DNA from: a phage
Length of the DNA: 64,000 nucleotides
Reading direction: 5' to 3' (one strand)
Assembly: GCA_024571205.1 (NCBI GenBank)
Contig: GCA_024571205.1_4523.1
The notes below the pieces were generated by a model that saw only the letters and a list, made by a program, of their open reading frames with translations, searched no databases and had not been told where the DNA came from. Of this stretch, positions 31,183-32,193 are shown piece by piece. The position numbers were made by a program, and so were the translations under genes. Position 1 is the first letter of the stretch. The number at the start of each line of letters is the position of its first letter.

Positions 31183-31306
31183 TATAAATAACTATATGAA
31201 GAGAACACTCTTCTAAGCGGTAGCCTACAACTGAGAGACTTGTCGAAAGAAGGTGAAATTCAGACGAACGTGGCTACTAAATATTATCTCGAATTGAGAA
31301 TTTAAA

Positions 31307-31555
31307 ATGATTAAACAATTACAACACGCTCTTGAACTGCAACGCCATGCATGGAATAATGGTCACGAAAACTACGGCGCGTCAATTGATGTTGAAGCCG
31401 AAGCACTGGAAATCTTACAGTATTTCAAACATCTGAATCCAGCACAGGCCGATCTTCGTGATGTACTGGCTCAGAAAGATGAATTGAAATATGCTAAGCC
31501 TCTGGCTTCAGCAGCTCGTAAAGCAGTTCGTCATTTTGTTATTACCCTGAAGTAA
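31307..31555 (+). CDS. rIII: rIII lysis-inhibition accessory protein
   Basis: 82 aa, MIKQLQHALELQRHAWNNGHENYGASIDVEAEALEILQYFKHLNPAQ matches T4 rIII. Confidence 0.9.
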   Translation: MIKQLQHALELQRHAWNNGHENYGASIDVEAEALEILQYFKHLNPAQADLRDVLAQKDELKYAKPLASAARKAVRHFVITLK

Positions 31556-31577
31556 GTTAAATCGAGGAGCCGTCGAA

Positions 31578-31781
31578 TTGTCTGATTATCGATTTGCGAA
31601 TCGGTATGTTTTAGAAGTACCGCCCCGACAATTTTACGGTGTACCTCTTGAATGTTATTCTTATAGCGGCAAGTGCATGCTACCCCGAGGTGATGGCCAA
31701 TCGGGAGTACGCCTCAAGGCCTATATATCCATCAGTATATATCTTATCCTCGAGAAATCGAACCCGGAACCTTTAAGCTAA
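31578..31781 (+). CDS. possible small ORF (TTG start), doubtful
   Basis: 67 aa frame with TTG start 8 nt after SD gaggag; the C-terminal half is low-complexity, coding status uncertain. Confidence 0.2.
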   Translation: MSDYRFANRYVLEVPPRQFYGVPLECYSYSGKCMLPRGDGQSGVRLKAYISISIYLILEKSNPEPLS

Positions 31782-31925
31782 CGGTGTGCAACAGATAAGA
31801 GCTATAAGGTATGATGACGGGTTTATGGTTATCCTGTCGTTAAATATCCAAAACCTATGTTCCCCATGAGGGCTTGCGCAGGCAATGTCAATAAGTCCTG
31901 CATTTTCATTTAAAGAGAATTTATA

Positions 31926-32105
31926 ATGGCAAAACAAGCTAAAGCAAAGAAAGCAGTTGAAAAGAAAGTTGATGGTACCTCTAAACGCGCTGGATACAAG
32001 CGTGGGTCGAACTCTCGTATTAATCAAACAGTTGAGAAGATCATGCGCAGAGCACGTGCAGTTCTTCGAGATGATGCTTCTCGTTTTGGAAAGGTTGTTG
32101 CATAA
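31926..32105 (+). CDS. small lysine/arginine-rich protein (59 aa), below the ORF-track size cut-off
   Basis: Hand translation gives MAKQAKAKKAVEKKVDGTSKRAGYKRGSNSRINQTVEKIMRRARAVLRDDASRFGKVVA; a strong UUCG hairpin terminator follows at 32111-32133. Confidence 0.35.
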   Translation: MAKQAKAKKAVEKKVDGTSKRAGYKRGSNSRINQTVEKIMRRARAVLRDDASRFGKVVA

Positions 32106-32110
32106 TTTTA

Positions 32111-32133
32111 GGGAGACTTCGGTCTCCCTTTTG
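32111..32133 (+). terminator. rho-independent terminator
   Basis: GGGAGAC-TTCG-GTCTCCC hairpin (32111-32128) + TTTT; the hairpin is identical to the one after gene 32. Confidence 0.65.
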
Positions 32134-32164
32134 TGCGTTTAGGGCAGAAAAAGTTTAAAAAGAT

Positions 32165-32193
32165 GTTTACTCTCCTGTAGGATGTGTTACTAT
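32165..32193 (+). promoter_or_regulatory. T4-type early promoter
   Basis: GTTTACT -35, 16-nt spacer, TACTAT -10, just after terminator 32111-32133. Confidence 0.5.

Follow-up and report, generated by a model that had tools for sequence, protein, structure and literature searches.

The 370 bp gap between rIII and gene 30.9 (31556-31925) in a Mosigvirus (RB69-like) genome harbours what comparative analysis identifies as a discrete structured RNA some 150 nt long, encoded on the + strand at 31656-31814. We consider it very likely that this is a functional structured RNA of that strand. Its helices, loops and kissing pair change only in compensating ways, and an RNA with a four-way junction, a covarying kissing loop and conservation above that of its neighbours almost certainly has a specific function. 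It is a single-copy, cassette-like accessory element whose presence or absence varies within one genus, and taken as a whole we lean slightly towards an autonomous + strand accessory RNA that would bind a specific partner. No structured RNA has previously been described in the rIII-30.9 interval, although T4-type phages are among the best-studied viruses; the RNA was probably overlooked because it is missing from T4 and T6, the reference phages, and because annotation pipelines either show nothing here or fill the region with spurious small ORFs.

The interval between rIII and gene 30.9

Positions refer to the window, that is the whole 64 kb stretch of phage DNA that was analysed. A sequence-only reading of this DNA had pointed to some 370 bp without a convincing coding frame downstream of rIII, and the gap is indeed real because rIII stops at 31555 and the next real gene, encoding the gp30.9 homologue (annotated as 30.9 in PEi20 and T4), begins at 31926. 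The structured RNA fills only about 43% of the interval, and the remainder is made up of three other conserved intergenic modules (U, B and C). The features of the locus are as follows.

31307-31555, + strand: rIII (lysis inhibition accessory protein), the upstream neighbour; PHROG 1457, E 2.7e-42
31556-31655, + strand: module U, intergenic hairpins directly 3' of the rIII stop codon and outside the RNA; common to T4, T6 and HX01
31656-31814, + strand: the whole structured RNA cassette; full-length covariance-model match, 188.1 bits, E 2.7e-48
31810-31865, + strand: module B, hairpin AUGACGGG/CCUGUCGU followed by GUUAAAUAUCCAAAAC; T4 and T6 have this module too
31866-31925, + strand: module C, a short hairpin CCCnnnnGGG-CUUG, then hairpin GCAGG..CCUGC, then the 30.9 ribosome-binding site; conserved across genera
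31926-32105, + strand: gp30.9 homologue, 59 aa, basic, the downstream neighbour; PHROG 1427, E 2.4e-31
32111-32133, + strand: intrinsic terminator-like hairpin GGGAGAC-UUCG-GUCUCCC and U tract, read from the sequence

The module U hairpin CGAUU-UGCG-AAUCG becomes AUGAUU..AAUCAU in T4 and T6, and the module has a fold z-score of -2.1. Module B lies 3' of the RNA in the window, CF1 and KMB20 and 5' of it in Klebsiella, Edwardsiella and Serratia phages, while module C is kept 5' of 30.9 across genera. The hairpin at 32111-32133 appears to close the rIII-RNA-30.9 unit; the equivalent site in fPS-65 carries a terminator annotation, and the hairpin explains weak Rfam matches at 32013-32175.

Architecture of the RNA

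The covariance model matches the 64 kb window only at 31656-31814. In the predicted fold the four-way junction (P1/P2a/P3/P4) is entered through the closing helix P1, the P4 arm carries a three-way sub-junction with P5 and P6, and a 6-bp kissing helix joins the apical loop of P2 (L2) to the loop of P3 (L3). The elements are listed in 5' to 3' order.

31659-31667, + strand: P1 5' strand UCUUAUAGC, partner 31801-31809; 9 of 9 pairs changed on both sides across the family
31668-31680, + strand: P2a 5' strand GGC (31668-31670; partner GCC at 31719-31721), then conserved internal-loop strand AAGUGCAUGC
31681-31709, + strand: P2b hairpin UACCCCGAGG / CC..UCGGG-A-GUA with apical loop L2 UGAUGG (31691-31696)
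31710-31721, + strand: conserved internal-loop 3' strand CGCCUCAAG, then P2a 3' strand GCC
31722-31741, + strand: P3 hairpin UAUAUAU / GUAUAUA with loop L3 CCAUCA (31729-31734); 4 of 7 stem pairs compensatory
31742-31748, + strand: P4 5' strand UCUUAUC, partner GAUAAGA at 31794-31800; 5 of 7 pairs compensatory, 98.7% of cells paired
31750-31761, + strand: P5 hairpin UCGA-GAAA-UCGA, GNRA loop on the + strand; 4 of 4 pairs covary
31762-31787, + strand: P6 ACCCG / CGG-U-GU with conserved 15-nt loop GAACCUUUAAGCUAA
31788-31793, + strand: J6/4 GCAACA, conserved unpaired junction strand; GCAAC invariant in all members
31794-31809, + strand: P4 3' strand GAUAAGA, directly followed by P1 3' strand GCUAUAAGG; contiguous

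Since the 3' strands of P4 and P1 follow each other with no linker, P1, P2a, P3 and P4 would form a perfect four-way junction. The sequence of P1 differs in every lineage, with pairing retained for the inner five pairs. Within P2a, a C-G pair is replaced by U-A in fHe-Yen9-01, where the G to A change in the 3' strand is balanced by C to U on the other side, and by U·G in phiC120; P2b shows compensatory changes in six of its eight stem pairs. P5 occurs as UCGA/UCGA, CCGA/UCGG, CUGA/UCAG or CCA/UGG, and we regard it as a peripheral element because its length and loop vary. In P6, Slopekvirus has U-A in place of a C-G pair and fHe-Yen9-01 has A-U in place of G-C; the motifs GGAMCC and GCUAA of its loop are invariant, and in EcS1 this loop has an inserted hairpin.

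About 50 nucleotides, situated in loops and junctions, are invariant across at least eight genera of T4-type phages. Across 31668-31680 little or no variation is seen at the residues G, G, A, A, G, G, C, A and U, and in the opposing segment (31710-31721) CCU and GGCC are invariant in 18-19 sequences. A resemblance to 16S rRNA (GGGAGUACG..CAAGG) was dismissed, as the stretch in question is the covarying 3' strand of P2.

Covariation, strand and conservation

The comparative evidence comes from a model-based alignment of 22 distinct sequences that fall into roughly 6-8 lineages. Standard pairs occupy 93.2% of 1121 pair cells (93-94%), a cell count inflated by shared ancestry because the 22 sequences amount to so few lineages; compensatory changes nevertheless recur in several of them. 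A small RNA had been among the possibilities raised for the interval, with covariation across related phages proposed as a check, and the alignment bears the earlier suggestion out: both partners have changed in 35 of the 51 pairs, 500 shuffles never attained the observed pairing and compensation values, and sliding the partners by 1-3 columns leaves pairing at just 31-41%. RNAalifold, applied to 18 sequences, predicted 40 pairs, 21 of them with compensatory changes. Predicted pairs that never vary are an A-U and a C-G in P6 and two of the three P2a pairs.

The L3:L2 kissing helix can be formed with 6-7 bp in each of the 12 distinct loop combinations, which use six different sequences, and the two loops covary in every lineage. 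Cognate loops always provide at least 6 bp, against a mean of 3.7 bp for non-cognate loops. An additional search of all column pairs for canonical covariation was dominated by lineage effects; the one candidate to emerge was a further basal pair in P2 (columns 26-64). A GCAU:GUGC contact between the internal loop of P2 and the P6/J6-4 region is also conceivable; both of its sides are invariant.

The strand follows from the asymmetry of the tolerated mismatches, G·U occurring in 61 cells and A·C in only 4, which indicates an RNA read from the + strand; the GNRA loop of P5 falls on the same strand. Between genera the core retains 84-96% nucleotide identity, as compared to only 60-80% for gp31, rIII, 30.9 and 30.8. 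The fold energy of the window sequence is unremarkable (z = -0.80 on the + strand, with neither strand distinctive), and thermodynamics alone would therefore have missed the RNA.

Open reading frames and the tRNA-like string

Two open frames cover parts of the interval, and we judge neither to be a gene.

31578-31781, + strand: 67-aa TTG frame, judged a non-gene; no PHROG or Pfam family, frame lost in relatives
31773-32027, antisense: 84-aa frame; no PHROG or Pfam family

The sequence-only reading had called the TTG frame weak and the antisense ORF implausible, an assessment with which we agree, since both frames exist but match no family and are not kept open in relatives. It had left room for a real small protein or a degenerate gene remnant. 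The search of PHROG and Pfam for a conserved homologue of the 67-aa frame returned none, and we found no evidence for a remnant. The conserved core contains stop codons in all six frames in nearly every relative, and its length varies between 130 and 142 nt through indels that are not multiples of three.

The same reading had drawn attention to a GGTTCGATT-like element, though it could fold no tRNA cloverleaf there by eye. The string does occur on the minus strand (31752-31765), where it is complementary to the 3' half of the P5 hairpin plus the 5' strand of P6 and forms no tRNA T arm. Being on the wrong strand and divided between two helices, it is in our view a coincidental hint of a tRNA. 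ARAGORN detected no tRNA gene anywhere in the 64 kb window, and the Rfam tRNA model gave no match at 31650-31820 on either strand, even at E values up to 10; a tRNA or tRNA-like gene was rejected on these grounds.

That the locus is a small protein gene or a decayed tRNA gene is thus scarcely credible to us. The open frames of 67 and 84 codons, the hypothetical proteins annotated over the homologous region in some GenBank records and the GGTTCGATT string speak for such a gene, but the frames lack any family and are disrupted among relatives by stops and out-of-step indels, and the T-arm-like string, unlike a T loop, varies (to GGTCCGATT) through compensated changes in P5 and P6.

A cassette with a patchy distribution

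About 425 phage records carry the RNA, 407 of the main type and 21 of the Slopekvirus type. Among the matches listed it occupies one place per record, with a single main-type record of the 407 having two. It lies 5' of 30.9 on the same strand in about 95% of records, the usual site being between rIII and 30.9. The RNA was present at 13 of 25 gp30.9 loci and absent from the other 12. Tequatrovirus is polymorphic, fPS-65 having the RNA and T4 and T6 lacking it, as is Mosigvirus, where the window carries it and HX01 does not. T4, T6 and HX01 show a clean cassette-sized gap at this slot, which in T4 is exactly empty, and they retain 30.9 and module C; a covariance-model search of the whole T4 genome gave no match. 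T4 grows well without the RNA, which shows that at least in some hosts it can be dispensed with.

In Slopekvirus and JC221 the RNA resides elsewhere, downstream of uvsY/uvsY.-1/-2 and facing the convergent uvsW.1; the sole other conserved sequence at that locus is a bidirectional terminator and no ORF follows. The order of the RNA relative to modules B and C also differs between genera.

The carriers seen are confined to T4-type phages of Enterobacterales. A blastn comparison against 5,426 E. coli genomes, looking for an origin or a target in the host, yielded no match, the method being blind to short antisense seeds, and an exact search with the invariant 3' motif of bacterial genomes and JGI metagenomes, which distant relatives may escape, gave nothing beyond a chance match within GC-rich coding sequence of Rubrivivax. 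In IMG/VR, the 5' motif gave mostly false positives in GC-rich coding sequence together with Slopekvirus-type copies, and a relaxed 3' motif added fHe-Yen9-01 only.

The insertion boundaries coincide with P1, and short GAATG/GTATG repeats lie at the slot. Such precise presence and absence, two genomic locations and a changing order with respect to the neighbours are properties that one might expect of a DNA-level element, such as a replication signal, a recombination cassette or a miniature mobile element bounded by terminal inverted repeats, in which case the helices would merely be inverted repeats of the DNA. We hold this to be very improbable. The tolerance of G·U but not A·C is a single-strand signature, a loop-loop pseudoknot is meaningless in duplex DNA, and P1, which would have to serve as the terminal repeats, differs in each lineage whereas ends bound by a transposase would be conserved. 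Nor is the element multi-copy within a genome (among the matches listed, and with the one exception noted); a MITE-like or repeated mobile element was accordingly rejected, the window containing one match with P1 ends unlike those of other lineages.

Comparison with known RNAs

The RNA appears to be new, with no match in Rfam, among tRNAs, in T4 rnaC/rnaD, in E. coli genomes or in the literature, where searches by topic and by sequence words found no description of it. The Rfam scan that had been proposed was negative: none of the 4227 models of Rfam 15, among them riboswitches, ribozymes, sRNAs and phage RNAs, matched anywhere in the window at gathering thresholds or, at E values up to 10, on either strand of 31650-31820, and the weak matches near the locus fall only on the terminator beyond 30.9. 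Given that Rfam and ARAGORN are both silent, the RNA would escape notice without a comparison of phages across genera.

The closest T-even parallels are the species 1 and 2 RNAs of T4 (rnaC/rnaD, T4 70908-71171), which are likewise non-coding, phage-encoded, 120-140 nt in length and co-transcribed with their neighbours, but they belong to the tRNA cluster, and rnaC has a true T-arm-like GGUUCGAAUCC at its end. They were rejected as relatives: with filters off, our model (R1) scored at best 8.7 bits (E 0.088) in the T4 tRNA region, on a bare hairpin outside both rnaC and rnaD.

The PeSL elements, which Arbiol, Comeau and Krisch reportedly described in 2010 as mobile cassettes of T4-type phages composed of an early promoter and a stem-loop, resemble the RNA in being short non-coding cassettes shuffled among intergenic sites in the hyperplastic regions of T4-type genomes. 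They differ in combining an early promoter with a simple hairpin and in occurring many times per genome, whereas the new RNA occurs once and has six helices and a pseudoknot. A promoter scan revealed no + strand promoter-like site within or just 5' of 31656-31814, and with a multi-helix junction in place of a stem-loop the PeSL assignment was rejected.

Orphan structured RNAs such as raiA, OLE, ROOL, GOLLD and HEARO share with it their comparative discovery, elaborate covarying folds and varied intergenic contexts, and some are carried by phages. All of them are in Rfam, however, and none matches; compared to ROOL, GOLLD and OLE the new RNA is also much smaller and is limited to T4-type phages of Enterobacterales.

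Cis-acting regulator, passive structure or autonomous RNA

The architecture invites comparison with riboswitches. The purine riboswitch is a three-way junction with an L2-L3 contact and the lysine riboswitch has a P2-P3 loop-loop contact; in these as in the new RNA a multi-helix junction is closed by a variable P1, conservation is concentrated in junctions and internal loops, peripheral stems vary, and a Watson-Crick helix between the loops keeps two adjacent hairpins parallel. The new RNA departs from both in its four-way junction with a three-way sub-junction, its restriction to phages and its lack of an Rfam match, an expression platform and a constant downstream gene.

Control of 30.9 in cis, by a riboswitch or leader responding to a metabolite or protein, would account for this aptamer-like architecture, in which six helices, a kissing helix and the roughly 50 invariant positions were found, and for the location of about 95% of copies upstream of the highly conserved 30.9 on the same strand. 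An expression platform and a consistent regulated downstream gene, on the other hand, were not found. No conserved platform is evident and in the window no terminator-like site lies 3' of the RNA; 60-120 nt of other modules in variable order separate it from the start of 30.9; the Slopekvirus and JC221 copies precede no ORF whatsoever; and T4, T6 and HX01 preserve 30.9 with its upstream module C and no RNA. We consider such a regulator quite unlikely.

The RNA could also be a passive structure, whether an exonuclease barrier, an RNase processing signal or a transcript insulator, by which the upstream message (rIII or uvsY.-2) is stabilised or kept separate. In every case it follows closely behind a same-strand ORF (8 nt past the rIII stop in CF1, 13 nt past a predicted small ORF in K41P2), and a compact fold with P1 as its closing helix would withstand exonucleases. 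A simple stabiliser would have no need of a covarying kissing loop or of some 50 unpaired nucleotides that never change, though, and the core is more conserved than the genes that it would supposedly protect, while the hairpins of modules U and B flank the RNA already. This role is decidedly unlikely in our estimation. The RNA is probably autonomous rather than a cis regulator of its neighbour.

Catalysis or binding

In the four-way-junction hairpin ribozyme and the VS ribozyme the junction unites conserved internal loops of different arms, and the VS ribozyme in addition uses a loop-loop kissing contact. Its size, too, is comparable to that of the new RNA, in which the 6-bp kissing helix differs by joining two otherwise unconserved apical loops. 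A new class of self-cleaving or otherwise catalytic RNA, processing the polycistronic message with an active site formed by the docked conserved loops, would fit the combination of invariant core nucleotides with variable peripheral helices, the locking of two conserved elements on different arms of a four-way junction by a loop-loop contact, and the lack of a consistent downstream gene. The patchy, cassette-like distribution would be in keeping with it as well, and is seen for many phage ribozymes. Catalysis of this kind is nevertheless unlikely: no Rfam 15 ribozyme family matches either strand at E values up to 10, the length of about 135-150 nt exceeds that of most self-cleaving classes, and no candidate cleavage site can be named from the sequence.

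We give binding a slight preference over catalysis. The favoured scheme of an autonomous binding RNA would run as follows. The RNA would be transcribed within the rIII-30.9 message, or in Slopekvirus within that of uvsY, and fold independently; we infer its transcription, and any processing, solely from strand and gene context. The kissing loops would clamp P2 beside P3, such that the conserved internal loop and the P6/J6-4 nucleotides could meet in one pocket, and this pocket may bind a specific partner, either a small molecule or a protein of host or phage, the whole acting as an autonomous module with no leader role over gene 30.9. By way of conjecture, host takeover or counter-defence might make use of the RNA as a decoy, sponge or scaffold.

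The RNA is switched on and off within single genera and sits among genes for host takeover and anti-defence, which marks it as a candidate for an accessory factor made of RNA. It is possible, if rather doubtful, that it represents a new class of phage RNA with a purpose-built pocket, either a new class of ribozyme or a sponge or decoy capturing a host immune signal or protein, which circulates as a swappable T-even-type cassette in Enterobacterales phages; if true, it would be an RNA counterpart to the protein anti-defence genes of the same hyperplastic regions. The question is directly testable because natural pairs with and without the RNA exist (the window versus HX01, fPS-65 versus T4 and T6), and many candidates for phage therapy against Klebsiella, E. 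coli, Shigella, Enterobacter and Yersinia carry the RNA. For RNA structural biology it would add a new and well-supported predicted fold, and the covariance model can be used for correcting hundreds of GenBank annotations.

Genomic context of the rIII-30.9 gap

The window derives from a Mosigvirus, a genus of T4-type phages. On its + strand the gene order is cd, 31.1, 31, rIII, a 370-bp gap (31556-31925), the gp30.9 homologue and 30.8. The genes bordering the gap are:

31307-31555, +, rIII, upstream of the gap
31926-32105, +, gp30.9 homologue (59 aa), downstream of the gap

The sequence-only reading of the gap as lacking a convincing gene was correct, and standard checks returned empty. Both open frames that it described are present (a 67-aa frame with a TTG start, 31578-31781, and an 84-aa antisense frame) and matched no PHROG or Pfam family. 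ARAGORN predicted zero tRNAs in the whole window, and Rfam 15 yielded zero matches in the window at gathering thresholds and zero inside the gap at E-values up to 10.

A sensitive blastn search of the gap against 50,697 phage records matched the gap flanks to close relatives only; a 135-nt core (31667-31801) was found at 91-96% identity in phages of other genera, infecting Klebsiella (Jiaodavirus), Edwardsiella (Kanagawavirus PEi20), Citrobacter (Moonvirus CF1), Enterobacter (Karamvirus) and Serratia (Muldoonvirus PS2). In these five genera the core always lies between rIII and 30.9, and between genera its nucleotide identity is 84-96%, compared to only 60-80% for the neighbouring genes. Around the core in the window, the 1-kb region shares 98.5% identity with Escherichia phage phiC120. 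Further members were collected by IMG/VR pattern scans, from gp30.9 loci and from GenBank phages, and 22 distinct sequences, corresponding to about 6-8 independent lineages, were realigned to a covariance model whose E-values are rough owing to a shortened calibration but whose bit scores (105-188) stand far clear of noise. Since each of the six frames of the core is interrupted by stops in nearly all members, and core length across members ranges from 130 to 142 nt, the core does not encode a protein, and the earlier suggestion of a small protein is not supported.

Fold of the RNA

The core belongs to a structured RNA (31656-31814, +), whose fold as predicted from the alignment has the following helices (P), loops (L) and junction strand (J):

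31659-31667 with 31801-31809, +, P1
31668-31670 (GGC) with 31719-31721 (GCC), +, P2a
AAGUGCAUGC / CGCCUCAAG, +, P2 internal loop
31681-31690 with 31697-31698 and 31701-31709, +, P2b, with a bulged A
31691-31696, +, loop L2, UGAUGG
31722-31728 with 31735-31741, +, P3
31729-31734, +, loop L3, CCAUCA
31742-31748 with 31794-31800, +, P4
31750-31761, +, P5, UCGA-GAAA-UCGA
31762-31766 with 31782-31787, +, P6, ACCCG with CGG-U-GU, 15-nt loop
31788-31793, +, J6/4 (P6 to P4), GCAACA

P1, P2a, P3 and P4 are contiguous without linkers and thus form a perfect four-way junction. The GGTTCGATT element noticed previously does exist as a string; as a sign of a tRNA it fails, since it is complementary to portions of P5 and P6.

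Compensatory changes are visible at once when homologues are placed side by side. In the model-based alignment of the 22 sequences, 93.2% of 1121 cells are standard pairs, falling to 31-41% when partners are slid by 1-3 columns, and 35 of the 51 pairs have changed on both sides. The covariation score, which is blind to the invariant parts (two pairs each in P6 and P2a, and any docking between loops in addition to L2:L3), is 0.43 versus 0.17 in shuffles, with none of 500 shuffles reaching 0.43. The apical loops of P2 and P3 share 6-7 nt of complementarity in each of the 12 distinct loop combinations, using six different sequences (UGAUGG:CCAUCA, CGAUGG:CCAUCG, CUAUGG:CCAUAG, CAAUGA:UCAUUG, UGCAUU:AAUGCA and UUGUAUU:AAUACAA), compared to a mean of 3.7 bp for non-cognate pairs; this comparative signal is strong evidence that L2:L3 forms a tertiary kissing helix. 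The excess of G·U over A·C cells (61 versus 4) and the GNRA loop of P5 when read on the + strand assign the RNA to that strand, in the same sense as rIII and 30.9.

Variation is found in the helices and in the loops of P2, P3 and P5. The invariant parts are:

P2 internal loop, GGYAAGnGCAU ... CCU ... GRCC
base of P3
P6 and its loop, ACCYRGAMCC ... GCUAAYRGUGU
J6/4, GCAAC

The covarying scaffold is predicted to be rigid and to present about 50 fixed nucleotides, by our analysis the pattern seen in RNAs with a specific binding target or a catalytic activity.

Occurrence and cassette-like behaviour

The main type of the RNA occurs in 407 phage records at 408 places, one place per record among the matches listed, in phages of Klebsiella, Escherichia, Shigella, Enterobacter, Yersinia, Salmonella, Citrobacter, Serratia, Raoultella and Erwinia. 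A diverged type occurs in 21 records, comprising Slopekvirus, GAP161-like phages and Yersinia phage JC221. The absence outside T4-type phages of Enterobacterales is based on exact-motif scans of 185,579 prokaryotic genomes and JGI metagenomes, where the sole match was a chance occurrence in coding sequence; no similar sequence was found in 5,426 E. coli genomes. The covariance model gave zero matches in the complete T4 genome and zero in the T4 rnaC/rnaD region. Identities as a tRNA, rnaC/rnaD, a PeSL cassette or a MITE were all rejected by membership tests. No RNA is annotated at the locus in the records inspected. Many deposited genomes draw 'hypothetical protein' ORFs across it (hits H3, H7, H15, H41-H49; L004 1211-1315), and in several records annotated with RAST its 1-kb region includes a '1,4-alpha-glucan branching enzyme, GH-13-type'; these calls look like annotation artefacts.

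Among 25 gp30.9 loci in IMG/VR the RNA is present in 13 and absent from 12. Tequatrovirus is polymorphic (the fPS-65 RNA is 100% identical to that of the window; T4 and T6 have none), as is Mosigvirus (present in the window, absent from HX01). A four-way alignment (A5) reveals that one slot, flanked by ...CTTGAATGT and (G)WATGATGACGGG, has three alleles: empty in T4, a 42-nt filler in T6 and HX01, and the RNA in the window, with insert boundaries that coincide with P1. The filler, CTATCATGCGTCAGAAAAGTGTTATCTGTGTAAGTCTTGGTG (T6, L007; HX01, L003), occupies the equivalent of window 31654-31810. It faintly resembles both RNA ends (GCGkCA..AAGTG; TGTGTAAG versus GTGTGCAAC) and on this likeness may be the remnant of an internal deletion.

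In Slopekvirus and JC221 the RNA follows uvsY, uvsY.-1 and uvsY.-2, with the convergent uvsW.1 on its other side; between two such genomes, conservation across that gap is confined to the RNA and a bidirectional terminator, with no downstream ORF. GAP161-like phages use the same convergent uvsY.-2/uvsW.1 gap (L052 9218-9382, L103 1493-1655, L011 1393-1558), and in all three groups a perfect bidirectional terminator, AAAGCCCC..GGGGCUUU, lies downstream of the RNA. In the T4 annotation, replication at oriF is primed by the uvsY transcript.

Proposed mode of action

Purine and lysine riboswitch aptamers, with their kissing loops, are among the closest known RNAs in organisation, with no sequence or model match, and a leader or riboswitch controlling 30.9 is one conceivable role. 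Riboswitches, however, have an expression platform and this RNA does not: the scan shows no terminator-like or promoter-like site abutting it. Its position among the intergenic modules also changes (RNA-B-C in the window and CF1; B-RNA-C in Klebsiella, Edwardsiella and Serratia phages; a C-type hairpin, the RNA, then B in Karamvirus), so that nothing adjacent is constant; the Slopekvirus and JC221 copies lack a downstream ORF, and 30.9 with its upstream module is retained in T4, T6 and HX01, which lack the RNA. On these grounds we favour an autonomous module that would work through its conserved pocket, which would bind a protein or a small molecule. The main rival is a catalytic role, which the fixed nucleotides would also suit; the junction-docked hairpin and VS ribozymes are likewise among the closest in organisation, again with no sequence or model match. 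That the RNA is accessory, swappable and at home in a hyperplastic early region suggests, by inference only, a part in host takeover or counter-defence. No description was found by topic and invariant-sequence-word searches of 8 million papers and preprints, and we therefore conclude that the family is undescribed, with the caveat of large anonymous catalogues of predicted viral RNA motifs (e.g. PMC10690425), which lie outside sequence-level reach.

Neighbouring modules and transcription signals

Three further conserved modules share the gap:

31556-31655, +, module U
31810-31865, +, module B
31866-31925, +, module C

Module U is structured sequence immediately 3' of the rIII stop codon. Its hairpin AUCGAUU-UGCG-AAUCGGU becomes AAUGAUU-UGCG-AAUCAUU in T4 and T6 by compensatory changes, and a longer fold spanning the 100 nt scores z = -2.1; the module may stabilise the 3' end of rIII or act as a weak terminator for it. 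Module B (also L004 1104-1161, L006 1135-1192, L010 1323-1380) is a second conserved intergenic element, present in T4 and T6 too (A5). It starts with AUGAUG, its hairpin stem covaries (AUGACGGG/CCUGUCGU in the window, GUGG/CCAC in Klebsiella and Serratia phages, GAC..UGG/CCA..GUC in Karamvirus), and a near-invariant GUWAAAYA..CRAAAC tail follows; alternatively, it could be a 10-codon mini-ORF in some phages. Module C (also L004, L006, L009) has in all genera a short hairpin CCCnnnnGGG, CUUG and a second hairpin before the 30.9 start, the second being a long GGGAGC...GCUCCC in Klebsiella, Serratia and Citrobacter phages. A translational operator acting on gp30.9, a very conserved and very basic protein, is one possible role for it.

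A perfect T4 late-promoter motif, TATAAATA, lies at 31183-31190, 117 nt upstream of rIII, and a strong hairpin with a U tract (GGGAGAC-UUCG-GUCUCCC, 32111-32133) follows 30.9; the equivalent site in fPS-65 is annotated as a terminator. This hairpin accounts for weak Rfam matches to PhrS and BSR0709. In the window rIII, the RNA and 30.9 appear to form one transcription unit, bracketed by these two signals and ending at the hairpin and U tract.

gp30.9 adjoins the RNA in most genomes, and T4 has gp30.9 without the RNA. Its amino-acid identity is 80-98% in most genera compared and 60-75% in the most distant loci, and its neighbours are much less conserved. Rich in lysine and arginine and without a Pfam match, it resembles nucleic-acid-binding proteins.
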